The notes: a model not told the origin generated them from the sequence alone. 64,000 nucleotides of DNA from Ferroacidibacillus organovorans (GCF_001642725.1 NZ_LSUQ01000003.1:1-64000), one strand, 5' to 3'; shown: positions 6,352 to 36,663, counted from the first letter of the stretch. Program-made: numbers and translations.

Positions 6352-7863
6352 ATGGTTATGATGAACAACTCACAGAAGAAAACAGACGTCATCTTAATCG
6401 GTGCCGGAATCATGAGCGCGACGTTGGGATCACTGCTAAAAGAATTGGCGCCGGATTGGACCATCAAGGTGTTTGAGAAACTCGACGACGCGGGAGAAGA
6501 GAGCTCAAACGAATGGAACAACGCAGGTACTGGACACTCGGCATTGTGTGAACTCAATTATACCCCTGAAGATTCCGATGGATCGATCGATATAAGTAAA
6601 GCGATAAAAATTAATGAACAGTTTCAGCTTTCAAGACAGTTTTGGTCGCATCTTGTAAAATGCAATTTGATTCGTAACCCGCGTGACTTTATCAGACCCA
6701 TTCCTCATATGAGTTTGGTACAAACGGAGAGCGATGTAGCATTTTTGAAAAAACGGTTTGAGGCACTGTCTGGCAATCCGTTGTTTCAAGGGATGGAATT
6801 TTCCGATGACCCGGAGAAACTGAAGGATTGGATTCCGCTTATCATGGAAGGCCGTTCATCGAAAGAACCGATTGCGGCAACTAAAATGGACTCTGGAACG
6901 GATGTCAATTTCGGCGCTTTAACGCGCATGATGTTTGATCATTTGAAAGACAAGGGTGTAGAGATAAATTATAGGCATCGTGTTGACGACATAAAACGCA
7001 CTGACGACGGGTCGTGGGAAGTAAAGGTGAGTGATCTCGGCAGTGGTAAAAATGATTGCCATTCTGCAAAATTCATTTTTATCGGCGGCGGAGGAAGCAG
7101 CCTGCTTCTGCTTCAAAAAACGGGTATTCCAGAATCAAAACACATTGGGGGATTCCCGGTAAGTGGACTCTTTATGGTTTGTAATAACCCCAAAGTGGTG
7201 GCACGTCATCACGCGAAGGTATATGGCAAGGCCAAGGTTGGCGCTCCGCCAATGTCTGTTCCGCATCTTGACACAAGATACATCGACAATAAAGAGACAT
7301 TGCTGTTTGGACCGTTTGCCGGTTTCTCGCCAAAATTTTTAAAGACAGGATCGAATTTTGATCTGATCGACTCTGTAAAACCGAATAATGTCTTTACGAT
7401 GTTGGCGGCAGGTGTGAAAGAGAGGGCATTGACGAAATACCTGATTCAACAGGTAATGTTATCGCATGAACAGCGTATGGAATTGTTGCGCGAGTTTATC
7501 CCGACCGCCAAAAGCGAGGATTGGGACATCGCACAGTCGGGTACGCGCGTGCAAGTGATCAAAGATACGCAGACCAGCGGTAAAGGTACGCTTCAATTCG
7601 GCACAGAAGTGATTTGTGCCTCAGATGGATCGATCGCGGCGTTGCTCGGCGCTTCACCTGGCGCCTCTACGGCTGTTTACGTCATGCTTGAGGTATTAGA
7701 AAAGTGTTTCCCAGAGCAAATGAAAGCGTGGGAATCCAAAATAAAAGAAATGATTCCAACGTTTGGTGTTTCGCTTTTAGAGAATGTAGCGCTGTTTCAA
7801 GAAATACAAACGACAACCGCGCAGACGCTTGGTTTGAATGAAAAGAAGCCGGTCTTTAGTTAA
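6352..7863 (+). CDS. mqo: Malate:quinone oxidoreductase
   Basis: [54 protein letters not shown]. Confidence 0.97.
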
Positions 7864-8083
7864 TTCACTCTGGGGCTTCCTTAGACTGAGGTGCTGCAAC
7901 CTTCGGTTCCTGCGTGGTTTTACACAATCTAAGAATTGCTGAACGGGCTCATCCGGCCAGAGGCGAAAATGACACTCTCAATGATGGTGAGACGACAGTC
8001 GCAATGAGCCCTAACATGGATTCTGTTACTCATGTGTTTGGTGATTGCCTCGCGGATGCCCGCGCAGGGCGTTCAATTAACGC

Positions 8084-8344
8084 TCACAGCTTCATCACGC
8101 GCAACCGCCAGTGTCCAGGCTCAACCTCTGCTACCGCCACGCGAAGTCCCAGACCTTCAAGGGCTGCAATGAGCGGGCCAGTCCGGTGTGGCACATAAAC
8201 TTCGCACAGTGTTCCGCGAGGGGACTCGTCGACCAGTTTTAGAATTTCGTGTCTTGGATGAAACCCCTTCCGAATCGCATCGCGGGCGTCAATCGTCAGG
8301 CGTGCATCCCCACGTTCGACCGTCAACAGATCCATCAGGTCCAT
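8084..8344 (-). CDS. Small conserved protein, DUF2249/TusA-like fold
   Basis: IDAR...HPRHEIL...VPHRTGPLI...EPGHWRL pattern; RBS AAGGAGG. Confidence 0.6.
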   Translation of the reverse strand: MDLMDLLTVERGDARLTIDARDAIRKGFHPRHEILKLVDESPRGTLCEVYVPHRTGPLIAALEGLGLRVAVAEVEPGHWRLRVMKL

Positions 8345-8365
8345 GTTGATGCCTCCTTATTGGAA

Positions 8366-8704
8366 TTACGCAGGGTGCTTACTTTGCGCTTCTTGTTTTG
8401 CGGTATTGTACAGCGCTGCCATTCCGCCATAGAGCGTATAGAAAAAGGCGTCCGGCGCGTCAAGAGAGAACGAGTTGTAATTTCTCGGATCCATACCGAG
8501 CACGAATTCAAACAGCTTAGCGCTGTCGTATGCGTAAAAGCAGAAATTCGTATAGTCAAATGCGGGCATTTTCTCATAGATGGTGACAATGTCCGACGAG
8601 TACGTCAGAATATCTCGTGCGGCTTCATCAACCATTTTCACGGCATCCACGAGTTCAACTGAGATCCGGATGGTTTTCTCATTCACGATATCTATTTTCG
8701 CCAC
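8366..8704 (-). CDS. Conserved hypothetical protein
   Basis: GTG start with RBS AAGGGG; co-oriented in a tight operon. Confidence 0.75.
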   Translation of the reverse strand: MAKIDIVNEKTIRISVELVDAVKMVDEAARDILTYSSDIVTIYEKMPAFDYTNFCFYAYDSAKLFEFVLGMDPRNYNSFSLDAPDAFFYTLYGGMAALYNTAKQEAQSKHPA

Positions 8705-8728
8705 AGTGATCCCCTTTCGCGCTACCGT

Positions 8729-9094
8729 CTAATAAGAGAAGACAAAAACGCCTACCCGCAGCGCCTCCTGATAGGCGGTTAGAGATATCAACTCATCTTT
8801 CATCGGCTCTAGTGGCCGGATCTGAAGATATCCGTCGTCTGCTGTGTCCAGATTCGCAGCGCCAAGTAATGTCCCTTTTGCTACAAGCGAGACAATCACA
8901 GATAATCCCCACCATAGCGCCGGATCCTCTACACCCTCGACTCCAGCCATTTCTTTCACGCGAAACACCCATTCATACGGCATGTGGGCTAAATTGATCA
9001 CATGCCGCAATTTCTGGTTTTGCTTGATGACAAACACACGACGATAGCCGTGCGGCACGTGGCCTACTGGCAGCCACTCGACGCTGGCTGTCAT
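8729..9094 (-). CDS. Hypothetical protein
   Basis: ATGA overlap with the upstream DUF2249 gene (translational coupling). Confidence 0.7.
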   Translation of the reverse strand: MTASVEWLPVGHVPHGYRRVFVIKQNQKLRHVINLAHMPYEWVFRVKEMAGVEGVEDPALWWGLSVIVSLVAKGTLLGAANLDTADDGYLQIRPLEPMKDELISLTAYQEALRVGVFVFSY

Positions 9095-9330
9095 GCGCCG
9101 ACACGACCGATGTGAATGCGAAAGGTCTCGGGTCCGCGCTCAATGTACTCCCATGAGAATATTCCTGAGCGTTCCAATTCAAACTGATAACGCAACGGTT
9201 GCGGATCGTGGTCATTGATCAGGAGCATCGCTTCTCCTGGTTTCAGGCTGTCGAATGTTTCAAAGATCACCTTGTGTTTCTGGTGCGGAGGATATTCTGT
9301 CGCATTGACTGTCGCTTGGAACTCACTCAT
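9091..9330 (-). CDS. DUF2249 domain protein
   Basis: KHKVIFETFDSLKPGE...LINDHDPQPL...WEYIERGPE; RBS GGAGG. Confidence 0.9.
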   Translation of the reverse strand: MSEFQATVNATEYPPHQKHKVIFETFDSLKPGEAMLLINDHDPQPLRYQFELERSGIFSWEYIERGPETFRIHIGRVGA

Positions 9331-9399
9331 GGGTAATTCCCTCCTGAATAGAAAGTTGACTTCACAACTCGCATTTTACGTCACCTGATGGACCAGGAT

Positions 9400-9415
9400 C
9401 GTGATTCATATCACA
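9400..9415. promoter_or_regulatory. Fnr/Crp-type box
   Basis: CGTGA-TTCATA-TCACA versus consensus TGTGA-N6-TCACA. Confidence 0.6.
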
Positions 9416-9480
9416 CAGTGACATTTTGGAATGAGGTGGCGTCAAAGCCTCAACTCAGGCGAATGCGGAGGCATAGGGGG

Positions 9481-9496
9481 TGTGACTCAAAGCACA
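9481..9496. promoter_or_regulatory. Second Fnr/Crp-type box
   Basis: TGTGA-CTCAAA-GCACA. Confidence 0.45.
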
Positions 9497-9609
9497 ATCT
9501 GCTGAGTCGACATGTGTTAGTCTGACCGCATAGGAGAATTATCTTCGCGGAACGTCACAGCAGAGAAGAAATTCTCATGGGTAGAGAGAAGAGAGCGAGG
9601 CGGTGAGTC

Positions 9610-10884
9610 GTGGCACTTCGCGCGATGCGTAGAAGGGTGCAGATCCTTCAACTGGCCATCCACCTGTATAAGACCTACAGGCAAATTCTACGATTGCAGG
9701 AGCATGGGGGTGCACAGGGGGAAATTGACAGACACTTTGCTGCGGCTGGACGTGAGATCAGGGAAACGGCAAATGGCCTGTACGGTGCGATGGTTAAGGC
9801 GGGACAATTTCTCAGTCTTCGCGAGGATTTGTTTCCGGAGGCATTTATAAAAGAACTCCAACAACTTCAGGACAAAGTTCCGTCTGTCGCGTTTTCCGAT
9901 GTGAGAGATGCCATTTTAGAAGCGTGCCGACAGCCGATGGATCCTATTTTCAATTCTATTGATCCGATTCCTGTTGCGTCGGGATCGGTTGCACAGGTGC
10001 ACCATGCCAAGTTCACGAGTGGACAGACCGCTGCCATCAAGGTGCTAAGGCCTGACATCGAGCGCCTTGTAGCGGTCGATCTCGCTACGCTCCGTCACGT
10101 TGCGCGCATTACCGACCGAATTTCTACGGTGCGCAATCGCCTGGATTTGATTGCGCTGCACAAGGCGTTTGCGGCGACGCTCACACGGGAGATGGATATG
10201 CGCGCGGAGGCAGGACACATGAAGAGGTTGCGGCAGACGCTGGCGAGTGATGAGCGGATCGTGATTCCGAAGGCGTTTGAAGCTTACACGACAACTCGCG
10301 TGTTGGTGATGGAGTGGATCGAAGGAACAAGTATCCGGGACACTGCACAACTTCAAGCTTGGCGTGTGGATCGGCAGGCTGTTCGGGATGCCTTGCTGGG
10401 TGCATACGTAAAACAGCTCTTGGTGACGGGCTTTGTCCATCTGGATCCGCATCCTGGAAATCTGGCCATACTTCCTGACGGAAACCTGGCCTTGCTCGAT
10501 TTTGGCATGGTCGCAGAGTATACCTCTGACGAGCGGGCTGCTTTTCGCGATCTGTTGCAGCGCGCATATTTGCGAGACATGGATGGTGTGGTGAGAATCC
10601 TGCAGAACCTCGGTTTTCTGCAATCAACATCGAATGCGGAAGAACTGGCCCGAGGGCTGCAGGGGTTAAGTAAACACTTCACTGTCGCAGATCTTCGCGA
10701 TTTGTTTCAGAAACATGGTTTTCGGTTGGAGGCGAGGTTTATGCTGCTGATCCGCTGTCTGGGAATGATGAAGACGGCAATGACCACATTGACACCGGAT
10801 GAAACCAATTGGCTTGAAGTCCTGTCTGAGCATGTGTTTCCCATCATGCTATCCGAAGCGAATGGCTCAATCGCCTCAGTGTGA
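9610..10884 (+). CDS. AarF/ABC1/UbiB family kinase
   Basis: KAGQFLS, ASGSVAQVH, AIKV, HLDPHPGN, LLDFGM. Confidence 0.93.
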   Translation: MALRAMRRRVQILQLAIHLYKTYRQILRLQEHGGAQGEIDRHFAAAGREIRETANGLYGAMVKAGQFLSLREDLFPEAFIKELQQLQDKVPSVAFSDVRDAILEACRQPMDPIFNSIDPIPVASGSVAQVHHAKFTSGQTAAIKVLRPDIERLVAVDLATLRHVARITDRISTVRNRLDLIALHKAFAATLTREMDMRAEAGHMKRLRQTLASDERIVIPKAFEAYTTTRVLVMEWIEGTSIRDTAQLQAWRVDRQAVRDALLGAYVKQLLVTGFVHLDPHPGNLAILPDGNLALLDFGMVAEYTSDERAAFRDLLQRAYLRDMDGVVRILQNLGFLQSTSNAEELARGLQGLSKHFTVADLRDLFQKHGFRLEARFMLLIRCLGMMKTAMTTLTPDETNWLEVLSEHVFPIMLSEANGSIASV

Positions 10885-12020: not shown

Positions 12021-12434
12021 CTAGCTATATCGTCGCTCTGATTCATCAATGGGATAGTCGTTTGCGCTCATGTCCCGGCGCTGCATAAGTCCTTCGTCGT
12101 TGAATTCCCAGTGCTCATTCCCGTGAGTGCGCATCCACTGATCGGTGTCTGCGTCACGCCACTCGTATTCAAAGCGCACGGAGATACGATTGTCGGTATA
12201 ACACCAAAGCTCTTTCATCAATTTGTAGTCGAGTTCTTTGGCCCATTTGCGCCGCAGGAATTCTTTGATCGCCTCTCTCCCTTTAAAAAATTCGGTGCGG
12301 TTTCTCCACTCAGAGTCAGGCGTATACGCCAAAGCGACGATTTCCGGGTCGCGCGTATTCCAGGCGTTCTCTGCCGCTTTGACTTTGGCGCGCGCGGTTT
12401 CTTCTGTAAAGGGAGGTTTGATGGGTGACGACAT
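12021..12434 (-). CDS. DUF1348 / NTF2-like family protein
   Basis: PPFTEETA...AWNTRDP...WRNR...GNEHWEF. Confidence 0.92.
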
Positions 12435-12877
12435 TCTGATCGCTCCTCTGGATTCATTTTATTTTTATGATACTTGAGTTGACGGTTGAGCGCCAGAATC
12501 GACGCATTGCTTTATGACAAAGTGTGCAGGATTCAAGTCTCATTGTTCATGCCCATCTTCTTTGGCGAGGTTGCCTTGGTTCCCATCACGTCTCCTGTCG
12601 CAGAGCAGGGTATCTTTTTTTAAAATCTGCTTTATGATGAGAATGCCTCCTGTCATTTTGCGATTGGAAATGCGTATCCCACAAGAATCGTAAATGGCCA
12701 GCATATGGATCCAGAAGAGCTTGTGAAGCGTGGATAGAATCATAGCATGGCGCATGTCGATTTTAAATGTCGATGGCGAGACAATGGACGGACGGCGAGT
12801 GCCCATCCTGCGCGCAGGAAAGTGGGTTTTAGCGGGTGAATCCAGTAAGTCGTAGGATTGTGAAAGAAGGAATGTGA

Positions 12878-14152
12878 TTGATCCGCTCATTTTTTCATGC
12901 TTTTGCGTTTCGCGAATATCGATGGCTATGGTTGCTTACGACACTGACCAATTCTGCTTCTTGGACGTTTACACTGGTGGTCACGTGGCAAGCCTACGCG
13001 CTCACGCACTCTTCTTCGTGGTCTGGCGCTGTCATGTTTGCGACACTCATTCCTAACATTATGGGGGCGCCGATTGCCGGTGTATTGGCAGACGTCATGG
13101 ATCGAAGGATACTCATGGTTTCAGCGTGTGGGATTGAAATTGTGATCACTGTTTTGCTCAGCGTTTTGTCGCGATTCCATTTGGAGACGCCTGCCTTGCT
13201 TGTGATCTTGTCCTTGCTCTTTGGATTTGCGTCAAGTGGCTTGAGCGTCATGCTCAGTTCTCTTGTTCCGTCCGTTGTGCCGCAAGAGACGTTATTCAAC
13301 GCGTTGTCCTTACAGGCTGTGGCACAAAGGGGCACCGAATTTGTCGGACCAGCGCTTGCAAGCCCTCTGCTGATCTTATTCGGCCCAGGCATGGCCTACT
13401 TGCTAGCCACCTTCTTTTATGCATTTGCCGGGACACTTGTCTTTTTTCTCGCGAACGTGCACATTGAGAGCCTGGCCGACGAGGATTTGCGGAGGCGTAC
13501 GATTTTTGCCCCGTTCCTTGATGGCTTCATCTATGTTCGCAAGAATCCCACGATCGGTCTCATGGTGTCGCTTGTAGGGTTTCACTGTGCCCTGACAATG
13601 GCGTATATGGGCATGTTGCCTCAATTCGTAAAAACATCCCTGCATGGCTCGACCGCCTTTTATGGTTTGGTTGTGAGTGCGATCGGTCTTGGATCGATTT
13701 TTGGAACGCTTCTTTTGGCGGGTGTAAAAGGTGTCCGGCTTCGAGGGGGATTGTACTGGATGACAGCGGTCATCAGCGGTGCATCTTTAACGCTTTTTGC
13801 ACTGAGCGAAACGCCTGTACTGGCGATGCTGGCGATCATCTTGGTAGGCGCATCGCAGGCGATTTTTATGACGCTTAGTCTTGGATACATTCAGCACATG
13901 TCGGTGAAACAGATGACAGGACGAGTGACCAGCCTTTACTTAGTGTTAGCTGGCGGATTCATGTCATTGGCAAATTTGGGGTATGACACATTGAGCAATG
14001 TTATTGCTCCGGGGTGGATCATGCGTTCTACTGGCGTTTTGTTTATGCTCATCGTGGGCATCTATGGACTCTTCTCCGCACAGTTTCGAACCGTTTCGAA
14101 ATTTGGCACCTTTTTGTCGCACGATAACGAAGTACAATCCGTTCGTGGATAA
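12878..14152 (+). CDS. MFS transporter
   Basis: About 12 hydrophobic segments; AGVLADVMDRR motif A. Confidence 0.9.
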   Translation: MIRSFFHAFAFREYRWLWLLTTLTNSASWTFTLVVTWQAYALTHSSSWSGAVMFATLIPNIMGAPIAGVLADVMDRRILMVSACGIEIVITVLLSVLSRFHLETPALLVILSLLFGFASSGLSVMLSSLVPSVVPQETLFNALSLQAVAQRGTEFVGPALASPLLILFGPGMAYLLATFFYAFAGTLVFFLANVHIESLADEDLRRRTIFAPFLDGFIYVRKNPTIGLMVSLVGFHCALTMAYMGMLPQFVKTSLHGSTAFYGLVVSAIGLGSIFGTLLLAGVKGVRLRGGLYWMTAVISGASLTLFALSETPVLAMLAIILVGASQAIFMTLSLGYIQHMSVKQMTGRVTSLYLVLAGGFMSLANLGYDTLSNVIAPGWIMRSTGVLFMLIVGIYGLFSAQFRTVSKFGTFLSHDNEVQSVRG

Positions 14153-14171
14153 AGCTCGATCCTGAGACTCG

Positions 14172-15623
14172 CTATACCACCTGAACGGTTCCGCGCAGTG
14201 AAACAGTAATCACACCGCGTCGCTCAATAAACTGGCGCATCGCGTCAATCGCTGAACAAGTAAGGTTTTTTCGGTTTATTCCATATTTTTCAGGCACGCC
14301 CTGCATCGTCACGAACGCCGCACGGTATGTGCGATCCAGGGTGACTGGCCGATCATTGACAAAGAGATTCTGGATGCGCGTTCCCGCTGGGTTCTCAATT
14401 TTGATAAACATTCTCATGCCAAGGCAGCGTTTTACATAACCGCCCATCTGACCGTACGGATTACGGGCAAACGTCTTTTCTAAATTCTCTTCCAACATTT
14501 CCATCAGTTCCCGCCCCGTGATCTCGACGGTTGAAACAGGGGGATTGGTGGGGATGATGTTCCACAGGTCATTGAGTGTAATCGGCCCCGGCGGGATGGG
14601 CGCCCCGTATCGCCAGCCATTCGAGAACGCGAGCTCTGTCTCGGCAACCTCAAGGATTGATTCCAACAGCAGATTGTCCATCGTCGTCTCGAGTTGTGCG
14701 TAGCGGTGGAGCGCCGTTTCCGTCTGCCCCACGATCGCTTGGAGCATTTCTTGATGCGGCAGAAGCGCCTGCTCTACAAGAGCTGCCACCTCGCGGTCGG
14801 GCGGGATGCTCTGCGCCACCTCGATGAGCGTGTGGCGATAATCGCGAATTTTGCCGTCTTCTATCTCCAACTCCAACTGCCCCATAAAAGAACCGTGACA
14901 ACCGGATTGGATGAGAATGGTGTCGTTGATGCTGACGGGATGATAGAGGCGGTTGTGCGTGTGGGCACTCAGTAAGACATCAATGCCATCGATCTCGGCT
15001 GCCATCTCTGCCTCAAGTGGAAATCCGAGGTGAGAGAGGACAACGACGAGATCGACCTGCTCTTCATTTCGCAGTGCAGCAATTTGGGCTGGTAATTCAT
15101 CCTTGCCCATCGTAAATCGAATGCCAGTAGAAAAGTGGGGCGGCATCGTCTTGTCGATGATGTGACAGGCGATTCCGATGATACCGATCTTTAGGCCAGC
15201 GCGCTCGATCACGGTATGGGATGGGAAGACACGTTGATTGCTTTCTTTGGCGTAACAGTTGTTTGCAAGGACGGGATAGTGAAGTCGCTCCGACAATGTT
15301 TGGAATTGGCTTGGACCATAGGCGAAATCCCAGTGTGCTGTCATTCCGTCTATCAAAAGTGCATTGAGAATCGGGACGAGCGCTTCCCCTTTGCTTGCGA
15401 CTGCAGGGTAGGTGCCGTGAAACGTGTCACCGTTGTCAAGGACAAGCACCCCGTCTGGATTTTGCGCTCGCGCGGCTTGAATCAGCGTGGCAATTCTGGC
15501 GTAGCCTCCGACATTTCGATAGTGAGCAATGCCAGAATCCTCGAGGAACATTTCTTTGTGCAGGTCAATGTATGCGTGAATGTCGTTCAATTGCAGAATG
15601 GTAAGACGGGTGGTTTCACTCAT
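14172..15623 (-). CDS. 5'-nucleotidase/SoxB-like metallophosphoesterase, no signal peptide
   Basis: DIH, DNGDTFHG, AHWDF, LSH, AHTH, SNGWRYG; ATG 15623 with RBS GAGGGG. Confidence 0.85.
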   Translation of the reverse strand: MSETTRLTILQLNDIHAYIDLHKEMFLEDSGIAHYRNVGGYARIATLIQAARAQNPDGVLVLDNGDTFHGTYPAVASKGEALVPILNALLIDGMTAHWDFAYGPSQFQTLSERLHYPVLANNCYAKESNQRVFPSHTVIERAGLKIGIIGIACHIIDKTMPPHFSTGIRFTMGKDELPAQIAALRNEEQVDLVVVLSHLGFPLEAEMAAEIDGIDVLLSAHTHNRLYHPVSINDTILIQSGCHGSFMGQLELEIEDGKIRDYRHTLIEVAQSIPPDREVAALVEQALLPHQEMLQAIVGQTETALHRYAQLETTMDNLLLESILEVAETELAFSNGWRYGAPIPPGPITLNDLWNIIPTNPPVSTVEITGRELMEMLEENLEKTFARNPYGQMGGYVKRCLGMRMFIKIENPAGTRIQNLFVNDRPVTLDRTYRAAFVTMQGVPEKYGINRKNLTCSAIDAMRQFIERRGVITVSLRGTVQVV

Positions 15624-15743
15624 TTCAATGTCCCCTCGAATGAAATTGCCAAACGGATTATGGGTCAGGCAATGAAAGCTAGACCTAACTTGTCCATGTG
15701 AGTGAAAATTACACATGGATTGCGCAAGGTTGACGGCTCCTGT

Positions 15744-15762
15744 ATACTGTTTTACACAGTAT
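15744..15762. promoter_or_regulatory. Palindromic operator ATACTGT-N5-ACAGTAT
   Basis: Perfect 7-bp inverted repeat in the divergent intergenic region; near-identical copy at 36642-36660. Confidence 0.65.
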
Positions 15763-15834
15763 CATGTCGTATAACTTGTGTCGATTCATGACGGTTGAGG
15801 TTAATTGTATAAACAGCATCGTGGGGGCGAGGTA

Positions 15835-17274
15835 ATGATCCATCCGCGCTTGTGGCAGATGCGCCACTCAGAGAAGGCTTGGTATCGCTGGCTTGTGTTT
15901 TCGACCGCCGTGACGGGGACGTTCATGGTGAATGTGGATAGCAGCGTGATGAACGTAGCCTTGCCTGTCTTAGAGCGAGAATTTCACGCAGGGCCACAGG
16001 TTTTGCAGTGGGTCATTTCTGCGTATTTACTGGTGATCACGGGGATTTTGCCGATTGTCGGGAGTCTATCCGATCGGATGAACCGAAAGCTCGTGTTCAT
16101 CACAGGGGTTGTCATCTTTACAGGTGGATCGATGCTCTGTGCGTTCTCGGACAGCATCACGCAACTCATCCTGTTTCGCATCGTCCAATCAATAGGCGGC
16201 TCGATCATCATGGGAAACGTCATGTCGATTGTCTCCTATATCTTTCCGGCCGGTCAGCGCGGCCGACCGCTTGGACTTGTTGGAAGCGTTGTGGCGGCGG
16301 GAACGATCGTCGGACCTTCGGTTGGTGGCGTGCTCATTGCGGCGTACGGGTGGCGCTCGATTTTCTGGGTGAATGTTCCAATTGGGATCGTATCGGTTGT
16401 CGCTTCCGTTTTGGTCATGATGCCGATTCGCTCCGATAGACCCGCGCGAAGATTTGATGTTATGGGTTCGATCCTGTTTTTTGTGGGGATTGTCAGTCTC
16501 ATGCTGTTTATCTCTGAAGGACAGACCTGGGGCTGGATGAATCTTCGGAGTTTGACTGCGTTCATTCTGAGCGTCGCGATGCTGTCAGCCTTTGTATGGC
16601 AGGAGTTAACGTCGAAGAGTCCTGTGATCGAATTGTCGCTGTTTCGATTGCCCAGATTTGTCCTCGGAAATCTAACAGGCTTCTTGTCGTATGTGATGAT
16701 CATGTTCCCTGGCTTTCTTTTGCCACTCTATATGCATGATGTGTTGCGTATCCCCACGGTGCACATTGGTCTTTTACTCACGCCGCAGGCGATTAGCATG
16801 ATTTTGTTTTCACCTGTGGGAGGCTGGCTGGCGGATCGATTTGGCACGAATTGGCCTGCAGCCATCGGACTGTTTCTCGGCACACTCGGATTAACGCTCA
16901 TGGCGTTTTTAAATTCGGCTTCGTCTTACACGGACATTGTGGTTGCCCTGTCCGTGTTTGGACTCGGGATGGGGCTCTTCACGTCTCCCAATAATGTGTC
17001 TGTCCTCGAGAGTGTACCGATTGAAAAATCCGGACTCACCGGGAGTTTGATCGCGACAGTCAGAAACTTTGGCCGCGTAGTGGGTGTGGCGCTCACCGTA
17101 TTGTTTCTCCAAATATCGGGGAATGATTTGCAGTCAAGCGCTGGCTTTGCACACGCGTCTTCCTTTGCATTTCGAATGGGGGTGATCATTGGGATCGCAG
17201 GCACGGTGTTAACGATGACACGGTTTCTTGTGCGTTTAAAGAAATTGCGTGTTGCGCATGAAACGAGTCGCTGA
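15835..17274 (+). CDS. DHA2-type MFS transporter (14 TMS)
   Basis: DSSVMNVALP, WVISAYLL, GSLSDRMNRK, GWRSIFWVNVPIG. Confidence 0.92.
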   Translation: MIHPRLWQMRHSEKAWYRWLVFSTAVTGTFMVNVDSSVMNVALPVLEREFHAGPQVLQWVISAYLLVITGILPIVGSLSDRMNRKLVFITGVVIFTGGSMLCAFSDSITQLILFRIVQSIGGSIIMGNVMSIVSYIFPAGQRGRPLGLVGSVVAAGTIVGPSVGGVLIAAYGWRSIFWVNVPIGIVSVVASVLVMMPIRSDRPARRFDVMGSILFFVGIVSLMLFISEGQTWGWMNLRSLTAFILSVAMLSAFVWQELTSKSPVIELSLFRLPRFVLGNLTGFLSYVMIMFPGFLLPLYMHDVLRIPTVHIGLLLTPQAISMILFSPVGGWLADRFGTNWPAAIGLFLGTLGLTLMAFLNSASSYTDIVVALSVFGLGMGLFTSPNNVSVLESVPIEKSGLTGSLIATVRNFGRVVGVALTVLFLQISGNDLQSSAGFAHASSFAFRMGVIIGIAGTVLTMTRFLVRLKKLRVAHETSR

Positions 17275-17362
17275 AGGGATCGCGGTAACATGTTGCAATG
17301 GGATGTTGCGAGCGGATTTGCTGTATACTTGTAGCACATCATTTCATCCTGGGGGAATTGAC

Positions 17363-17701
17363 ATGGCAAAGTTGGCATTTTGGATTACAGCAGGACCAGA
17401 ACTAGAGGCAAAAGCGCTCTCTGGTATCGTACTAGCCAGTCGTTTGAAGAAGAATCGCGGACAAGATGTGGAGGTGTACTTCTTTGGGCCTGGCGTGGCA
17501 CTGGTCGGTAAGCCTAGTCCAAAAGTGGCAGAGGCGCTCGCGATGCTCCGAGATGCAGAAGTGCACGGCGGGTATTGCCCGTTTAATGCGGAGCAATTTG
17601 GCGTTGAGGAGGCAGTATCTGGCGCAGGCTTACATGGAGAGGCGGCCGGAGAAGCGCTCATTCGGTTAGTGGAAGATGGGTATCAGGTTGTCGGCTATTA
17701 A
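17363..17701 (+). CDS. DsrE family protein
   Basis: VEVYFFGPGV, single Cys (YCPFNA), C-terminal GYQVVGY; RBS GGGGGA. Confidence 0.8.
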   Translation: MAKLAFWITAGPELEAKALSGIVLASRLKKNRGQDVEVYFFGPGVALVGKPSPKVAEALAMLRDAEVHGGYCPFNAEQFGVEEAVSGAGLHGEAAGEALIRLVEDGYQVVGY

Positions 17702-17732
17702 GAATGAGAGACAGCGACGCGCGGAGGCCGAC

Positions 17733-18344
17733 ATGAAATTTAAATTCAGGATCTACTCGGACTACATCTGACCGTTTTGCCACATCGGCAACGGGATTGT
17801 CGAAGCGTTAAAAAAAGAATTCGAGATTGAAGATGAATGGGTCAGCTATGAGATTCATCCCGAGACGCCAAAAGAAGGTGTGCGGCTTGAGGAGCGATTT
17901 CCGGCTGCGTCATTAGAGCAGATGCAGGGAAGGCTCAGGGCATCGGGGAAAGCGTTGGGACTCTCTTTTGGGAATTTGGAGCTTTTGTCAAATTCGAGGT
18001 TGGCGCTTATGGCCAGTGAGTTTGCGCGCGATAAGGGTGTGTTCCACGATTTCCACCAGCGAATCTTTGACGCGTATTTTCGCGCGTGTGAAGATATCGG
18101 GAAATTGGAAGTGTTGCTCTCCATGGCGGGTCAGTGCGGCCTTGATCCTGATGAATTGAAAACTGCACTGGCGGATCTCCGCTATATGCCAAGACTTGAG
18201 CAGGCACAGCGTGAAGGCGCAAAGCAGGGTGTGACCGGAACACCGACGTTCATCATCAATGACACGTATAAAGTGGTGGGGGCGCAACCTTTTGAGGTAT
18301 TCCGCAACGCTCTCCATAAAATTTCGGAAGGGCATGTGGAGTGA
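17733..18344 (+). CDS. DsbA/FrnE-family thiol-disulfide oxidoreductase, putative selenoprotein (UPFC)
   Basis: RBS GGAGG; ATG 17733 in frame with ORF 17880; YSDYI-TGA(17769-17771)-PFC; YEIHPETP; GVTGTPTFII; GAQP. Confidence 0.85.
17785..17803 (+). promoter_or_regulatory. Candidate bacterial SECIS hairpin
   Basis: Stem TCGGCAA/TTGTCGA with loop CGGGA starting 21 nt after the UGA. Confidence 0.55.
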
Positions 18345-18362
18345 AAGCTGTGACAATAGGTT

Positions 18363-18408
18363 GTCGTGACACGCCGAAGAGCGGTTGTGTCGCGGCAATC
18401 TTTTTTTA
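18363..18408 (+). terminator. Intrinsic terminator after the DsbA-like gene
   Basis: GTCGTGACAC...GTGTCGCGGC followed by a T-tract. Confidence 0.65.
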
Positions 18409-18418
18409 TACGCAGAAA

Positions 18419-18486
18419 TTGACGAGAGCGTGGATGTGTATGTAAAATAGACCGTGATGTTAGCACTCCCTTGCGTTGAGTGCTAA
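18419..18486 (+). promoter_or_regulatory. sigA promoter and CIRCE (HrcA operator)
   Basis: TTGACG (18419) and TAAAAT (18443); perfect TTAGCACTC-N9-GAGTGCTAA at 18460-18486. Confidence 0.95.
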
Positions 18487-18551
18487 CGCGTGGTGTATCC
18501 CCACGACAAAGGATAAAAACCCCATGGGGACGAATGAAAGGAGTCATTTTT

Positions 18552-20432
18552 ATGCAAAAAACAGAGTTTAAAGCGGAGTCAAAGCGGTTATTAGAAATGA
18601 TGATTCACTCGATTTATTCTAATCGAGAAATTTTCTTGAGGGAATTGATTTCAAACGCGAGTGACGCGATTGATAAAATTTACTACAAAGCGCTGACGGA
18701 TAGCAACCTAACGTTTGCTAAGGAAGATTATTATATCAAGGTGGAAATCGATAAAGACACTCGCACATTGTCGATTGTGGATACCGGGATTGGCATGACG
18801 CGGGATGAACTGGAAAACAATTTGGGCGTGATCGCTCAGAGTGGATCGCTGTCCTTTAAGCGTGAAAATGAGGCAAAAGATGGGCATGACATTATCGGGC
18901 AGTTTGGCGTCGGGTTTTACTCAGCGTTTATGGTTGCCGAGGAAGTCACGGTTATCACACGGGCGCTTGGGAGCGATTCTGCATACGTTTGGAAATCTGC
19001 GGGTGTGGATGGATACACGATTGAATCAGGACAAAAGGCTACGGTTGGCACAGAAATCCTTTTAAAGATCAAGGAAAACACAGAGGATGAGAATTACGAG
19101 GATTATCTGGATGAGTATCGTGTGCGGTCGATCATAAAAAAATACTCCGATTTCATCCGCTATCCAATCAAGATGGAAGTGACGCGGCAGCGGCCAAAGG
19201 AAGGCAGCGAAGGGGAGTTTGAAGAATACCGGGAAGAACAAACGATCAACAGCATGGTTCCGATTTGGAGAAAGAATAAAAACGAGCTCACCGATGAGGA
19301 CTATGAAGCTTTCTATATGGAGAAGCACTACGGCTTTGACAAGCCGTTAAAGCATATGCACATCAGCGTCGACGGCGCTGTGAGCTATAACGCCATTTTG
19401 TATCTGCCGGAGACGACCCCTTTTGACTTTTATACAAAGGAGTATGAAAAAGGTTTAGAGCTCTACTCGAATGGTGTGCTCATCATGAGCAAAGCGCCTG
19501 ACCTACTCCCGGACTATTATCGCTTCGTCAAAGGGATGGTTGACTCAGAGGACCTGTCGCTCAACATTTCTAGAGAGATTTTGCAGCAAAACCGGCAACT
19601 CCAGTTGATTGCTAAAAACATCAAGAGCAAAATTACCAGTCAACTGCAGAACATGTTGAAAGATGAGAGAGACAAATACGAAGTGTTTTATAAGTCGTTT
19701 GGTACACAGTTGAAGTATGGCGTTTACAGTGACTATGGGAGCAACAAAGACACGCTCCAGGATCTTTTGCTGTTTTACTCATTAAAAGAAGAGAAAATGA
19801 TCACGCTGGATGAATACGTTTCGAGTATGCCAGAAGATCAGAAATACATTTATTATGCGACAGGCGAAACGTATGAGAGAATTGAGAAATTGCCGCAGAC
19901 AGAGCTTGTGGTGGATAAAGGGTATGACATTCTCTGCTTTATTGAAGAAATCGACGAGTTTGCGATCAAAATGTTGATGAACTATAAAGAGAAAGAGTTC
20001 AAGTCGGTCGCGAGCGGCGATTTGGGGATCGAAGCGGACGAGGACAAGGAACAGACGGAACAAGAGGCGCAGGAGAATAAGGCGCTGTTTGACGAGATGA
20101 AAAAAATTCTGGGTGACAAGGTGAAAGCGGTCCGCATCTCCAAGCGGCTGAAAAATCATCCGGTTTGTCTCACGGCGGACGGCGATTTGACGATCGAAAT
20201 GGAAAAAGTGCTGAATGCGATGCCGAACAGTCAACAAGTGAAGGCGGAAAAGGTGCTGGAAATCAACAGCAATCACAGTGTGTTTCAATCGTTGCGCGCA
20301 GCGCTTGAGCAGGATCAGGAGAAATTGAGCCTCTATACCAACCTGCTGTACCATCAAGCGTTACTCATTGAGGGACTGCCGATTCAGGATCCGGTGGACT
20401 TTACAAACGATATTTGTAAGATCATGGTGTGA
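18552..20432 (+). CDS. htpG: Hsp90 chaperone HtpG
   Basis: [52 protein letters not shown]. Confidence 0.97.
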
Positions 20433-21070: not shown

Positions 21071-24028
21071 ATGGGCCATGTTCAGTTCAATCTTGATGGA
21101 GAGTTACGGCAAGTGCCAGAAGGTACGCGAATCCTAGATTATCTGATCGCTCAAGGCATTGAGCACCCGCATATTTGTTACTCAGAGGTGCTGGGACCGA
21201 TTCAGAGTTGCGACACCTGCATGTGCGAAGTCAACGGACAAACGGTGCGGGCTTGCGCGACAGTTCTAGAGGATGGCATGAAGGTACGCCTTGCTTCCGC
21301 GCAAGCGAAAGAGGCGCAGCGCGATGCGATGGATCGCATCTTGGAAAATCACCTGTTGTATTGTACCGTGTGCGACAACAACAATGGAAATTGCCGTGTC
21401 CACAACACGGCAGAAATGTTGGACGTGAGTCACCAAACGCGCCCATTTCGCCCCAAAGGGTATGACGTGGACATGTCGAATCCATTTTATCGCTATGATC
21501 CTGATCAGTGCATCCTCTGTGGGCGCTGTGTGGAGGCGTGCCAAGATCTGCAAGTCAATGAGACGCTCAGCATCTCGTGGGAAGACGACATGCCGCGCGT
21601 GTTGTGGGACGGTGGAAAACCGATTGACGAGTCGTCATGCGTCTCTTGTGGCCACTGTGTTACGGTGTGTCCTTGCAATGCGCTGATGGAGAAATCGATG
21701 CTTGGCGAAGCGGGTTACATGACAGGGATGTCGGACGAATTGTTACATCCGATGATTCAACTGGTCAAAGAGGTTGAGCCTGATTATAAGACCATTTTTG
21801 CAGTGTCTGAAGTTGAGGCGGCCATGCGCGAAACGCGGACGAAAAAAACGAAGACGGTCTGCACGTTTTGTGGTGTCGGCTGTAGTTTTGAAGTGTGGAC
21901 GAAGGGGCGCGAAATTCTCAAGATTGAGCCCGTAGAGCAGGCGCCTGTCAACAGTATCTCTACATGCATTAAAGGTAAATTTGGCTGGGATTTTGTGAAT
22001 TCGAACCAGCGACTCACGTCGCCCCTGATTCGCAAGGGGGATGCATTTGTTGAAGCGTCCTGGGACGAGGCGCTTGACTTGATCGCAAAAAAGATGGGAC
22101 AGATCAGAGATACGCATGGCTCGAATGCGCTTGGCTTTATCTCTTCTTCTAAAATGACGAATGAAGAGAATTACCTGATGCAAAAGCTGGCAAGGCAAGT
22201 GTTTGGAACGAACAACGTGGATAACTGTTCGCGCTACTGCCAGTCTCCCGCCTCTTGGGGGTTACAACAGACGGGTGGAATAGGCGGCGACTCGGGAACG
22301 ATTGAGGATATCGCTGCTGCGGGGTTGGTCATTCTCGTTGGCTGTTCACCGGCAGAAGGCCATCCGGTATTGGCAACGCGCATCAAGCGCGCGCACAAAT
22401 TGCACGGGCAAAAACTGGTTACGTTTGATCTTCGGAAACACGAAATGGCGGAGCGCTCGGATCTTTTTGTGCGGCCAAAGCAAGGCACGGATTATGTATG
22501 GTTAGCGGCTGTCACGAAGTACATCATCGATCAAGGTTGGCATGATGAAGCGTTTATTCATCAGCACGTCAATGGATTTGATGCGTATTCGGAACTGCTG
22601 GAGTCCTTTACACTCGAATTTGCCGAAAAGGAAACGGGTATTTCAAAAGAAACGCTCATTCAGGTTGCGACAATGGTTCATGAAGCGGACGGAACGGCGA
22701 TCTGTTGGGGCATGGGCGTTACGCAAAATGTGGCGGGTTCGCATACGTCTGGCGCGATTGCAAATTTGCTGCTTGTGACGGGCAACATGGCGCGCAAAGG
22801 CGCAGGCGCTTTTCCACTGCGCGGACACAACAATGTTCAAGGCGCGAGTGACATGGGAACGATGCCGAATATTTTCCCGGGGTATCAACCGGTGACGGAT
22901 GGCGATATCAGGGCGAAATTCGAAAAAGCGTACGGGGTGTCGATTCAGGCTCAACCAGGGTATGACAACATCCAAATGCTAGAGGCCATCGAGCGCGGTG
23001 AGCTTAGAGGAATGTACATTGCAGGGGAAGACATGGCGTGGGTTGACGCGAACTCGAATCATACGCAAGAGATGCTTAAGAACGTCGAGTTCTTGGTTGT
23101 CCAGGAAATCTTCTTGACGACGACCGCGCAGTTTGCAGACGTGATTCTTCCGGGGACGCCATCCCTTGAAAAGGATGGAACATTCACCAACACAGAGCGG
23201 CGTGTTCAACGCTTGTACAAAGCGCTGGAACCGCTCGGTGACAGCAAGCCAGACTGGGAGATCTTTATGGAACTGGCGCGTCGCTTGGGGTTTGCTTGGA
23301 ACTACGCGCATCCGCGTGAAATTTTTGCGGAAATGGCCAGTTTGACACCGTTTTTCTCGGGATGCAATTACGATGGATTGGCGGACTGGGGAAGTTTTCA
23401 CTGGGGATCGCCTGATGGGGAAAATACACCTGTTCTGTATTTGAACGGATTCAATTTTCCTGACAAAAAGGCGCGCTTTGCATTGTTCGAGTATGTTGCG
23501 CCTGTAGAGTTCCCGGAAGAGTTTGATCTTACGCTTGACAATGGGCGTCTTCTCGAGCAATTTCATGAGGGCAACCTTACGGGCAAAGTGGCTGGTATTC
23601 AAGATAAACTGCCTGAGGTTTTTGTGGAGATCTCGCGCGAGCTGGCGGAGCAACGCGGTGTTGAAACAGGAACGTTTGTACGGCTTGAGTCACCGTATGG
23701 GGCGGTCAAATTAAAAGCGATTGTCACGGATCGCGTACAAGGCCAGACGGTGTATATGCCGATGCACTCGTCCAGCCACGAAACGGCCGTCAATATGTTG
23801 ACGGGGAACATCTTTGATGTGAAGACGCACACGCCAGCGTATAAACAGGCGAAGGTGCGGATGCAGGTGTTAAAGGCAAAAGGGGACAGTCCACTGCCGC
23901 GCAACAATCCGCGCAATGCCGTGCGAAAGCCACAGATGGGTGTGCAGGTTGAGCGGAAGTGGGCGCGTGCCGACTATCAGCCGATTGCGGATGTCAATGT
24001 ACCCGATTCTTATAAGGGGGCGCGTTAA
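21071..24028 (+). CDS. fdhF: Formate dehydrogenase alpha subunit-like molybdoenzyme (YjgC/YrhE type) with fused Fe-S domains
   Basis: N-terminal 2Fe-2S and 4Fe-4S Cys motifs, CTFCGVGC, SRYCQSP, LRGHNNVQG, EKDGTFTNTERR. Confidence 0.92.
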   Translation: MGHVQFNLDGELRQVPEGTRILDYLIAQGIEHPHICYSEVLGPIQSCDTCMCEVNGQTVRACATVLEDGMKVRLASAQAKEAQRDAMDRILENHLLYCTVCDNNNGNCRVHNTAEMLDVSHQTRPFRPKGYDVDMSNPFYRYDPDQCILCGRCVEACQDLQVNETLSISWEDDMPRVLWDGGKPIDESSCVSCGHCVTVCPCNALMEKSMLGEAGYMTGMSDELLHPMIQLVKEVEPDYKTIFAVSEVEAAMRETRTKKTKTVCTFCGVGCSFEVWTKGREILKIEPVEQAPVNSISTCIKGKFGWDFVNSNQRLTSPLIRKGDAFVEASWDEALDLIAKKMGQIRDTHGSNALGFISSSKMTNEENYLMQKLARQVFGTNNVDNCSRYCQSPASWGLQQTGGIGGDSGTIEDIAAAGLVILVGCSPAEGHPVLATRIKRAHKLHGQKLVTFDLRKHEMAERSDLFVRPKQGTDYVWLAAVTKYIIDQGWHDEAFIHQHVNGFDAYSELLESFTLEFAEKETGISKETLIQVATMVHEADGTAICWGMGVTQNVAGSHTSGAIANLLLVTGNMARKGAGAFPLRGHNNVQGASDMGTMPNIFPGYQPVTDGDIRAKFEKAYGVSIQAQPGYDNIQMLEAIERGELRGMYIAGEDMAWVDANSNHTQEMLKNVEFLVVQEIFLTTTAQFADVILPGTPSLEKDGTFTNTERRVQRLYKALEPLGDSKPDWEIFMELARRLGFAWNYAHPREIFAEMASLTPFFSGCNYDGLADWGSFHWGSPDGENTPVLYLNGFNFPDKKARFALFEYVAPVEFPEEFDLTLDNGRLLEQFHEGNLTGKVAGIQDKLPEVFVEISRELAEQRGVETGTFVRLESPYGAVKLKAIVTDRVQGQTVYMPMHSSSHETAVNMLTGNIFDVKTHTPAYKQAKVRMQVLKAKGDSPLPRNNPRNAVRKPQMGVQVERKWARADYQPIADVNVPDSYKGAR

Positions 24029-24508
24029 ATGGCGGCGCCGATTCAGAAGATTTCGCGTGCGGTGAAAACGGAGCAGCCTACAGACGTTAAATCGCTTGAA
24101 AGCCTCCTCTCTGCGGTAGCGGATAAGAATGAGAGTCTTGAACAGGCGATGAATTTGCTTCAAGAGCTGTACGATAGTGGTATTCTCGAAGCGTTGACAG
24201 CGATGGTTGTCGCGAAAGAAAAGATCGCGAAAATCGCCGTCGAGCAGGCGTTGCGCCCGGAAGCCACGACGCTCATCAACAATATGATGAGCGCCTTAGG
24301 CGGATTGACCAAACTCGACCCGGAGATGACGGGCACGTTGTTAAGCGGGCTTGCGCAAGGATTGGAAGATGGAAAACAATCCTTGCAAAACTCGAAAAAA
24401 ATTGGCGTGTTAGACCTCGGAAGGGCGTTAAATGATCCTGATGTAAACCGAACACTCAAATTCGCGATGGGCTTTTTGAAGGGATTCGGGAAATCGATGA
24501 TGGATTAG
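24029..24508 (+). CDS. DUF1641 (YjgD-like) protein
   Basis: MAAPI start, ALNDPDVNRTL C-terminal motif, adjacent to the Fdh gene. Confidence 0.88.
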   Translation: MAAPIQKISRAVKTEQPTDVKSLESLLSAVADKNESLEQAMNLLQELYDSGILEALTAMVVAKEKIAKIAVEQALRPEATTLINNMMSALGGLTKLDPEMTGTLLSGLAQGLEDGKQSLQNSKKIGVLDLGRALNDPDVNRTLKFAMGFLKGFGKSMMD

Positions 24509-36635: not shown

Positions 36636-36663
36636 TTGCGCATCCTGTAAAACACAGTATAAT
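36636..36663 (+). promoter_or_regulatory. sigA promoter of the padR-family gene with operator ATCCTGT-N5-ACAGTAT
   Basis: TTGCGC-16-TATAAT; palindrome 36642-36660 overlaps the -10. Confidence 0.7.

Follow-up and report, generated by a model that had tools for sequence, protein, structure and literature searches.

The presence of SoxB is taken to indicate thiosulfate oxidation in the periplasm by the SoxYZ-dependent route. A SoxB-like gene that occurs without SoxXAYZ has been described genetically in Erythrobacter flavus 21-3, where it is clustered with tsdA and a dioxygenase-rhodanese gene and is needed for the conversion of tetrathionate to sulfate and sulfur; the cluster holds one essential SoxB-like gene, D0Y83_01365, and two dispensable paralogues (PMC7608252). 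The text of that paper contains neither “cytoplasm” nor “signal peptide.” Here, we examined a signal-less SoxB-like hydrolase gene of Ferroacidibacillus organovorans that lies, with four other genes, at positions 12878 to 18344 of a 64,000-nucleotide (nt) stretch of DNA (GCF_001642725.1 NZ_LSUQ01000003.1:1-64000; referred to as the window). We propose, with a probability of about one-half, that its product is a cytoplasmic enzyme that releases sulfate from a sulfur-bound terminal sulfonate and that the gene stands next to an operon for thiol redox and efflux with which it is only loosely associated.

Other described systems bear on this proposal. SoxB itself hydrolyzes trithionate and binds poorly a sulfonate adduct that is one atom shorter (PMC5336275). 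In Metallosphaera cuprina, DsrE3A is reported to form a Cys-S-thiosulfonate with tetrathionate (PMC4175335). DsbA-like selenoproteins, which concern another gene of the locus, have been a listed family since 2005-2006 (PMC1088965, PMC1794560), and the members named in the 2006 survey come from Deltaproteobacteria and Clostridia (PMC1794560). An initial annotation of the window, made from its sequence alone, had stated that no description was known of a SoxB-like hydrolase combined with two MFS transporters, a DsrE protein, and a selenocysteine-containing DsbA. That statement must be narrowed, since SoxB-like genes outside the Sox system (E. flavus, PMC7608252) and DsbA-like selenoproteins (PMC1794560) have already been described, but it otherwise holds: in the open-access literature searched, we found no description of the cytoplasmic SoxB-like clade or of its pairing with DsrE.

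A signal-less relative of SoxB

Calls of open reading frames (ORFs) bore out the five-gene layout given in the initial annotation, as well as its description of the hydrolase as signal-less. Since motif I (LNDIH) begins at residue 13, the protein has no leader and no room for a signal peptide, and a possible 31-residue upstream extension of the ORF contains no hydrophobic or twin-arginine stretch. The further claim that the enzyme is related to SoxB and is not an ordinary UshA-type nucleotidase also stood up. The hydrolase scores 345.5 bits on the SoxB model TIGR04486, compared to 97.3 bits on the UshA model (cutoff, 600 bits), 81 bits on the NadN model (cutoff, 436 bits), and 30 bits or less on the cyclic phosphodiesterase model (cutoff, 486 bits); no nucleotidase model gives more than 117 bits. 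Two Pfam domains of the 5′-nucleotidase family are above their cutoffs (PF00149, 35.5 bits; PF02872, 71.5 bits). Among proteins of solved structure, the best sequence match is Thermus thermophilus SoxB (2wdc in the Protein Data Bank [PDB]; 165 bits), followed by the Escherichia coli c4898 nucleotidase (127 bits), a Thermus 5′-nucleotidase (84 bits), and CD73 (~64 bits), while the alignment with E. coli UshA spans the N-terminal domain only. An AlphaFold2 model built from an alignment of 20 family members had a mean pLDDT of 91, and the top seven PDB chains in a fold search with this model were all SoxB (TMq, 0.90 to 0.91).

Eight residues (D14, H16, D63, D66, H97, H198, H221, and H223), which we take from general metallophosphoesterase motifs to be the metal ligands, are invariant in 20 of 20 family members. 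H97 and W98, equally invariant, belong to an H-W-[DE] motif that is common to the hydrolase and SoxB (“SHWEW” in the 2wdc alignment); the usual metallophosphoesterase consensus at this position is G-N-H-[ED]. Searches of the source genome, which is 96.8% complete, gave 0 matches to SoxY or SoxZ (PF13501 and PF08770), and the same searches found both in a Thermus thermophilus control. By these comparisons, the hydrolase is a relative of SoxB that is distinct from canonical SoxB.

A protein search recovered 3243 relatives at an E value of 1e-10 or lower among 8000 scored candidates. The best 120 of the 3243 have 458 to 516 residues and 56 to 100% identity, and their public names, mostly “bifunctional metallophosphatase/5′-nucleotidase,” range to “sulfur-oxidizing protein SoxB.” The clade is tightly conserved (~482 residues; 52 to 76% identity). 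In contigs from one genome per species, a relative was encoded at 583 of the 601 pattern matches listed; the clade thus extends to the genomes of at least 583 bacterial and archaeal species, methanogens among them. The best 80 loci (52 to 67% identity to the hydrolase), whose neighborhoods we studied, come from Bacilli, Chloroflexota, Bacteroidota, Proteobacteria, Methanoculleus and other Methanomicrobiales, Methanosarcina, Thermoplasmatota, Bathyarchaeia, and others. Orthologues are rare within the Bacilli. Among 100 relatives, the only one was in a same-genus genome (G001; 92% identity), eight other genomes among those 100 carrying paralogues (33 to 39% identity), and 400 genomes sampled across the Bacilli yielded one orthologue (53% identity), with no sulfur neighbor detected within 1.5 kb of it.

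Two genomes, those of Thermithiobacillus tepidarius and of a Nitrospirae metagenome-assembled genome (MAG), have a canonical SoxB beside a clade member. The canonical proteins score 905 and 822 bits on TIGR04486 and carry RREFL twin-arginine (Tat) leaders (MSLSRREFLQ and MALTRREFLW), whereas the clade members score 338 to 356 bits and start directly at motif I. Other SoxB-like paralogues in these genomes score 190 to 287 bits, and the N termini inspected were lipoprotein, Sec-type, or Tat leaders. A quick maximum-likelihood tree of 37 rows, whose root region is unreliable owing to two long branches, grouped the 25 clade rows together (SH-aLRT, 89), with signal-less Bacilli paralogues as their nearest neighbors; the clade, the paralogues, and canonical SoxB formed a group (SH-aLRT, 94) that excluded a nucleotidase-like protein and one exported paralogue group. 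Judged from the tree and the N termini, the clade is predicted to be cytoplasmic and is separate both from Tat-exported canonical SoxB and from UshA-type nucleotidases.

Sulfur genes around the hydrolase clade

When the window proteins were sought by tblastn in the 80 family loci, the result was nearly blank (DsrE, 0 loci; DsbA, 1 locus [L001]; MFS_3, 1 locus [L048]; DHA2, 1 locus [weak, 49 bits]), and neighbors were therefore clustered de novo. ORFs were called in all 80 loci and clustered, 20 cluster representatives were named by Pfam, and hidden Markov models (HMMs) were built from the clusters. Within 3 kb of the SoxB-like gene, the DsrE family was found in 26 of the 80 loci, in 18 of them within 300 bp and on the same strand; metallo-beta-lactamase (MBL) plus rhodanese proteins of the persulfide-dioxygenase type were found in 18, YeeE/YedE halves in 7, TauE in 6 (abutting in 5), tandem rhodaneses in 4, and pyridine-nucleotide disulfide reductases and TsdA/SoxA-like cytochromes in 3 each. 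At least one of eight neighbor families was present within 3 kb in 47 of 80 loci, a total that partly reflects selection, because the eight families were chosen from the same loci in which they were counted. As an internal control, the nearest match lay more than 3 kb away in only 2 of 28 DsrE loci and 3 of 21 dioxygenase loci, though the outer zone is larger. Sulfur-type neighbors occurred in 8 of 10 broad taxon groups, with loci grouped by record title; there were none in the four Clostridia/Erysipelotrichia loci or in the single Methanosarcina locus. The pairing of a SoxB-like enzyme with DsrE, which the initial annotation had drawn from the window, thus recurs across phyla, and these neighborhoods indicate that the link between SoxB-like enzyme and DsrE carrier is real at the family level; the part of the claim that did not stand is that the window's own DsrE exemplifies it, since that protein falls in another subfamily (see below).

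Loci without HMM matches were scanned with Pfam, covering 36 of 48 ORFs in a first set and all 132 ORFs of the other 28 loci. In the two nearest named Bacilli loci, Pfam matches delineate operons resembling cst, one downstream of the hydrolase gene (L001; TauE, rhodanese-MBL, DsrE, TusA-rhodanese, and rhodanese) and one beside it (L005; a CsoR-type repressor, rhodanese-TusA-DsrE, and MBL-rhodanese); in L006, TauE is directly upstream of the hydrolase gene. The cst sulfide-stress operon of Staphylococcus comprises CstR, CstA (rhodanese-TusA-DsrE), CstB (dioxygenase-rhodanese), and TauE, and to our knowledge, the described operon has no SoxB-like member. A locus from the Lentimicrobiaceae (L048) has DsrE, MFS_3, P-type ATPase, and SoxB-like genes on a single strand.

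Other genes recur near the SoxB-like gene. P-type cation ATPases lie within 3 kb in 6 of 80 loci (L004, L027, L031, L048 [two copies], L073, and L077), and it is our guess that they supply metal for the dimetal site; DUF202 membrane proteins are likewise near the SoxB-like gene in 6 of 80 loci. In Pontibacter, a 19-kb sulfur island (L117; genome G433, contig C1, 458000 to 477000) contains a dioxygenase-rhodanese gene, YeeE halves, three DsrE-type genes, three SoxB-like genes (one signal-less, two of the lipoprotein type), and a gene for a TsdA-like cytochrome.

The source genome has sulfur genes of its own apart from the window. A cst-like operon on contig C5 (11300 to 15400) encodes a CsoR-type repressor, a rhodanese, TauE, DsrE/DrsE_2, TusA-rhodanese, a thioredoxin, and further DrsE_2 pieces, among them a better DsrE match than that of the window; the SoxB-like gene is neither in nor near this operon. 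Homologues of the persulfide dioxygenase-rhodanese are present elsewhere in the genome. This operon and these homologues suggest that the organism handles sulfane sulfur and thiosulfate in the cytoplasm. An HMM made from Pontibacter-type genes found no match for a TsdA-like gene in the source genome.

The local operon, its predicted selenoprotein, and its surroundings

The neighborhood comparison did not uphold the view of the five genes as one co-conserved unit: the set is kept only in the same-genus genome G001, which has all five genes in order, the in-frame TGA included. On this comparison, the window's arrangement of DsrE, selenocysteine-containing DsbA, and MFS genes appears genus-specific and local. 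A role of the MFS proteins in the transport of thiosulfate or tetrathionate, also suggested for this locus, found no pointer to such substrates, and both proteins match efflux-type families (Table 1). The MFS_3 protein scores 114.6 bits on the NCBIfam EntS model, under its cutoff of 324 bits, and the DHA2 protein exceeds the TIGR00711 cutoff of 230.2 bits. The hydrolase and MFS_3 genes are convergent, with a gap of 19 bp, and the hydrolase and DHA2 genes are divergent, with a spacer of 181 bp; the DHA2 gene possibly starts at ATG 15835 rather than at 15805.

Table 1. Genes and candidate elements of the locus (window coordinates)
Feature	Position	Strand	Evidence
MFS_3-type (EntS-like, “transmembrane secretion effector”) transporter, 424 aa	12878-14152	+	PF05977, 114.5 bits
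Signal-less SoxB-like binuclear metallohydrolase, 483 aa	14172-15623	-	PF00149 + PF02872; TIGR04486, 345.5 bits
Palindrome ATACTGT-N5-ACAGTAT, candidate operator	15744-15762	.	Perfect; divergent intergenic region
DHA2 (EmrB/QacA-type) efflux MFS, 489 aa	15805-17274	+	TIGR00711, 285.9 bits; PF07690, 187.5 bits
DsrE-like small protein, 112 aa, lone Cys72 in GYCPFN	17363-17701	+	PF02635, 25.8 bits (cutoff, 22.7)
Predicted cytoplasmic DsbA-like selenoprotein, 203 aa, motif U-P-F-C	17733-18344	+	PF01323, 99.3 bits; TGA read through
In-frame TGA, predicted selenocysteine codon	17769-17771	+	Cys alignment in homologues; selenocysteine machinery in genome
SECIS-like hairpin, U-CGGCAA / loop CGGGA / UUGUCG-A	17785-17803	+	13 nt after UGA; consensus of 8 TGA-bearing genes

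The DsbA-like frame is open only when its TGA is read through. The reading of this codon as selenocysteine in the initial annotation is well supported. The nine closest homologues among 400 other Bacilli genomes (50 to 60% identity) include six with a single in-frame TGA and three with none, and the TGA aligns with the first Cys of CPFC (SDYI*PFC versus SDYICPFC); because of this alignment and this recurrence, and because G001 also keeps the TGA, we do not regard the codon as a chance event. Selenocysteine-decoding components are encoded in the genome (tRNA-SeC; SelB, 372.5 bits; SelA, 567.4 bits; SelD, 387.9 bits). The SECIS-like hairpin is common to eight TGA-bearing genes, in which one pair is C-G in six and G-C in two, a compensatory change, and its stem is broken in the three Cys homologues by synonymous and near-synonymous codons. 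The 65 nt after the window UGA fold no better than shuffled sequences (z, −0.53). An earlier hairpin candidate, directly after the UGA, is weakened in G001 and was dropped in favor of the hairpin common to the selenocysteine genes. We conclude that the protein is a selenoprotein of a known kind, with selenocysteine insertion as a prediction. On contig C34 of the source genome (G000; 7351 to 9679), selA is followed by selD, and since the selD match holds one in-frame TGA, selenophosphate synthetase looks like a selenoprotein too.

No DsrE, DHA2, or SoxB-like gene was found at the 29 DsbA-homologue loci. A codirectional MFS_1 transporter of 12-helix size, from another MFS family, abuts five of the nine closest DsbA homologues (24 ORFs scanned), which points to an MFS pump, and not DsrE, as the recurrent partner of these selenocysteine- or Cys-containing DsbA proteins. 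At these five loci (L120, L124, L126, L127, and L128), the stop and start codons often overlap. In a Sporolactobacillaceae MAG (L001, 2596 to 6677), a selD-like gene, selB, and a DsbA-like ORF lie directly upstream of the SoxB-like gene; this DsbA-like ORF is without the CxxC part.

The window's DsrE-like protein passes the PF02635 threshold narrowly and was not picked up by the single-genome DsrE search; in a language-model search it was nearest to DsrE clusters (score, 0.94). Its Cys72 is invariant in seven of seven orthologues. Profile comparisons (see below) place it in a different subfamily from the DsrE proteins encoded next to SoxB-like genes elsewhere. Orthologues in five related genomes (59 to 84% identity) have nitronate monooxygenase, FMN reductase, methyltransferase, and thioredoxin-reductase-like genes as neighbors, and no MFS, DsbA, or SoxB-like gene was found within 1.5 kb of them (27 of 38 flanking ORFs scanned). 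A complex prediction for the hydrolase and the window's DsrE, run without controls, gave a score of 0.00 and a mark of 0.32, values that weigh neither for nor against a contact between the two.

The palindrome in the divergent spacer was first noticed by eye and then tested. The window contains two matches, compared to 0.01 expected by chance; the second, with one mismatch (36642 to 36660), overlaps a TATAAT (−10) box ~55 bp before a PadR-family gene (~36714 to 37081). The spacer copy is kept, with changes, in G001. These copies are possible operators of a PadR regulon, and regulation by a PadR-type protein would suit an operon for efflux or detoxification; the hydrolase gene and the MFS/DsrE/DsbA operon may share the candidate operator. 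At two mismatches, the palindrome is no commoner than a control (6 versus 8). A third copy with one mismatch, on contig C5 of the source genome (8896 to 8914), is flanked by an aldolase gene on one side and a chemotaxis-receptor gene on the other; a tie to the cst-like operon was considered and rejected, since this copy is 2.8 kb before the operon, which has its own CsoR-type repressor. No inverted repeats with 10-bp arms were found in the intergenic region, a promoter and terminator scan of positions 12400 to 18600 gave counts equal to those for shuffled sequences, and no Rfam family matched between positions 12000 and 19000.

The surroundings were surveyed by scanning 42 of the 67 nonoverlapping window ORFs of at least 80 residues, covering ~10 kb on each side of the locus. 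No further sulfur gene was present among these 42, and the flanking ORFs represent ordinary Bacillales housekeeping functions, such as malate:quinone oxidoreductase, HtpG, and a formate-dehydrogenase-like oxidoreductase. The last of these (21071 to 24508) is a 985-residue molybdopterin oxidoreductase with N-terminal Fe-S domains, is followed by a DUF1641 protein, and contains no in-frame TGA, though the genome decodes selenocysteine.

Proposed function, alternatives, and known systems

The sulfate-releasing activity that we favor for the hydrolase is suggested by its relationship to SoxB, the neighbor statistics, the absence of SoxYZ, and three printed facts (PMC5336275, PMC4175335, PMC7608252). 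The enzyme would hydrolyze the terminal S-SO3 linkage in an adduct of the thiosulfonate or sulfonate type, and its products would be sulfate and a persulfide or a thiol. If a carrier of the DsrE, TusA, or rhodanese type bears the adduct, it would take the form Cys-S-S-SO3 or Cys-S-SO3; a small thiol could bear this group instead (as an S-sulfo-thiol), and polythionates, for example tetrathionate and trithionate, are further candidate substrates. Through its links to DsrE, dioxygenase-rhodanese, YeeE, and TauE in other genomes, the hydrolase gene would be wired to the cytoplasmic handling of sulfane sulfur and thiosulfate, and the MFS/DsrE-like/DsbA operon of the window would be a module for efflux and for thiol or sulfane redox chemistry that came to lie next to it in this genus. 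Within that module, the DsrE-like protein would be a candidate carrier, and the persulfide or mixed disulfide that results would have a candidate reductase in the selenocysteine-containing DsbA. A bolder version, which we offer only tentatively and hold to be well short of an even chance, is that DsrE and the SoxB-like enzyme make up a SoxYZ-independent cytoplasmic carrier-hydrolase module, widespread among bacteria and archaea that include methanogens, Thermoplasmatota, and Bathyarchaeia, which would turn a thiosulfonate-loaded carrier Cys into a persulfide and sulfate inside the cell and which would here have recruited a different DsrE and a selenocysteine-containing DsbA reductase. Such a module would supply a missing cytoplasmic branch of the metabolism of thiosulfate, tetrathionate, and sulfane sulfur.

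Several observations weigh against the sulfate-releasing reading. The hydrolase is under the equivalog cutoff of the SoxB model (345.5 versus 550 bits) and matches positions 109 to 553 of its 556, the first 108 being absent; nucleotidase folds come close behind SoxB in the fold search (TMq, 0.83 to 0.86), so that the fold is consistent with the SoxB placement and not decisive. In 33 of 80 loci, none of the eight neighbor families lies within 3 kb; in the 28 loci whose ORFs were all scanned with Pfam, no sulfur-transfer domain was found within 2.6 kb, bar a PALP enzyme (L051) and ThiS (L076); and nucleotide-metabolism neighbors occur in 3 of 80 loci (a nucleoside deoxyribosyltransferase in L003, a phosphoribosyltransferase in L009, and a PF06189 5′-nucleotidase in L006). 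The abutting DsrE genes are Methanomicrobiales-like in 14 of 18 cases, the rest being from Anaerolineales/Chloroflexota (L011), Thermoplasmatota (L026 and L038), and Paludibacter (L037); because one archaeal group supplies 14 of the 18, independent linkage events are few and the counts are inflated by kinship. DsrE genes of Pontibacter and Rufibacter encode signal-like N termini and, for that reason, probably serve the exported paralogues there. In the window, the tie between the hydrolase and the right-hand operon consists of adjacency alone, found in one other genome only. In that genome, G001, a single base is missing from a GG run near codon 40 of the hydrolase gene (contig C53, ~9894; window, ~15505), either a true frameshift or an artifact of the draft assembly. 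The HMM of the SoxB-associated DsrE subfamily (cluster c2) gave no match to the window's DsrE even at an E value of 10, and an hhalign comparison of the two was weak (E value, 0.013; probability, 3.3%), with Cys falling on Cys. The likeness to the E. flavus pathway is one of gene cast, and the clade may correspond to D0Y83_01365 or to one of its two dispensable paralogues. Finally, the activity of the clade is a prediction for every one of its members.

Some of these points are what an ordinary cytoplasmic nucleotide phosphoesterase would lead one to expect, whether a 5′-nucleotidase, a cyclic phosphodiesterase, or a hydrolase of APS, PAPS, or pAp, with sulfur neighbors that are loosely associated or linked at the level of the nucleotide. 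The two Pfam domains of the 5′-nucleotidase family, the prevailing public names, the c4898 nucleotidase (solved with uridine) as second-best relative, the closeness of the nucleotidase folds, and the few nucleotide-metabolism neighbors all agree with such an enzyme, as does the presence of the family in anaerobes not known to oxidize sulfur, methanogens among them. We nonetheless consider it unlikely, given that the SoxB model scores three times as high as any nucleotidase model, that every nucleotidase cutoff is missed by a wide margin, that the motif is the SoxB-type H-W-[DE] instead of G-N-H-[ED], and that the neighborhoods are enriched in sulfur carriers and not in nucleotide genes. A small-molecule special case of the sulfate-releasing reading would make the enzyme a hydrolase of S-sulfocysteine or another S-sulfo-thiol, serving thiosulfate assimilation or the repair of sulfite-damaged thiols. 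Thiosulfate-using cysteine synthases make S-sulfocysteine, and PALP genes, of the cysteine-synthase type, flank the SoxB-like gene in L006 (two) and L051 (one); genes for TauE and YeeE transporters often lie near it, and its broad distribution among strict anaerobes is more in keeping with assimilation or repair than with respiration. With PALP neighbors in only 2 of 34 Pfam-scanned loci, however, and with abutting DsrE genes that point to a protein-bound substrate, this special case seems to us very improbable; the poor binding of the one-atom-shorter adduct by SoxB also speaks against it (PMC5336275).

The initial annotation had gone further and joined all five genes into one cytoplasmic system in which DsrE could replace SoxYZ, the selenocysteine-containing DsbA could recycle it, and the MFS proteins could move thiosulfate, tetrathionate, or a product. 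Contiguity and synteny in G001, with the TGA kept, would be expected of such a pathway, and so would the invariant Cys72, which falls, in a weak alignment, at the conserved-Cys position of the SoxB-abutting DsrE subfamily; the single-strand gene set of L048 and the DsbA-like fragment adjoining the SoxB-like gene in L001 point the same way. The fragment, however, lacks its CxxC part, the tblastn search of the 80 loci came back nearly blank, the DsrE orthologues of five related genomes are without the other four genes within 1.5 kb, and the 29 DsbA-homologue loci are without DsrE, DHA2, and SoxB-like genes. Both MFS proteins belong to efflux families, and adjacency is the sole argument for DsrE as carrier and DsbA as recycler. 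An integrated five-gene pathway is therefore doubtful, and we rate it as quite unlikely.

Metagenome pipelines label members of the clade “SoxB.” Should the clade prove to consist of cytoplasmic hydrolases that work with other partners, such labels exaggerate the extent of Sox-type sulfur oxidation in the genomes of anaerobes and archaea. The sulfate-releasing reading, if true, would add an unstudied route from cytoplasmic thiosulfonate or polythionate to sulfate, for which the abutting DsrE genes offer a concrete candidate substrate. The yield at the level of the window is smaller: a well-supported selenocysteine-containing DsbA in Bacilli and a genus-specific gene arrangement.

Set against described systems, the hydrolase has in common with the UshA/5′-nucleotidase family the PF00149 and PF02872 domains and the overall fold, and its UshA score falls far short of that family's cutoff. 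The DsbA-like protein shares with known DsbA-like selenoproteins the PF01323 fold, selenocysteine in place of the first Cys of CxxC, and selenocysteine and Cys forms among close relatives; it and its homologues differ from the members in the 2006 survey in having Bacilli hosts, in lacking a signal peptide, and in often adjoining an MFS gene (PMC1794560). Domain sets of the cst type stand beside the SoxB-like gene in L001 and L005 and are unlinked from it, on contig C5, in the source genome. In the M. cuprina DsrE3A/TusA system, the -S-S-SO3 group that SoxB takes off SoxY is reported to be carried by the Cys of a cytoplasmic DsrE-family protein, and for this reason the pairing of DsrE with a SoxB-like enzyme is chemically grounded; that system has no hydrolase, and the window's DsrE is a weak, distinct PF02635 member (PMC4175335). 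Periplasmic SoxB (TIGR04486; T. thermophilus 2WDC-2WDF and 4UWQ) is the best profile, sequence, and fold match of the hydrolase and shares its two-domain dimetal architecture and H-W-[DE] motif; the hydrolase differs in having no Tat leader and no SoxY or SoxZ in its genome and in belonging to a separate clade, members of which occur alongside true SoxB in two genomes. The TsdA-SoxB pathway of E. flavus resembles what we describe in having SoxB-like “5′-nucleotidase” genes, without SoxXAYZ, beside a persulfide dioxygenase-rhodanese, and it includes TsdA, for which the source genome has no match. The Pontibacter island L117 presents the same cast as the E. flavus cluster, and the clade's member there is its one signal-less SoxB-like gene. 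What is new here is thus a SoxB relative with another predicted compartment and other partners, and its nearest precedent in print is the E. flavus pathway.

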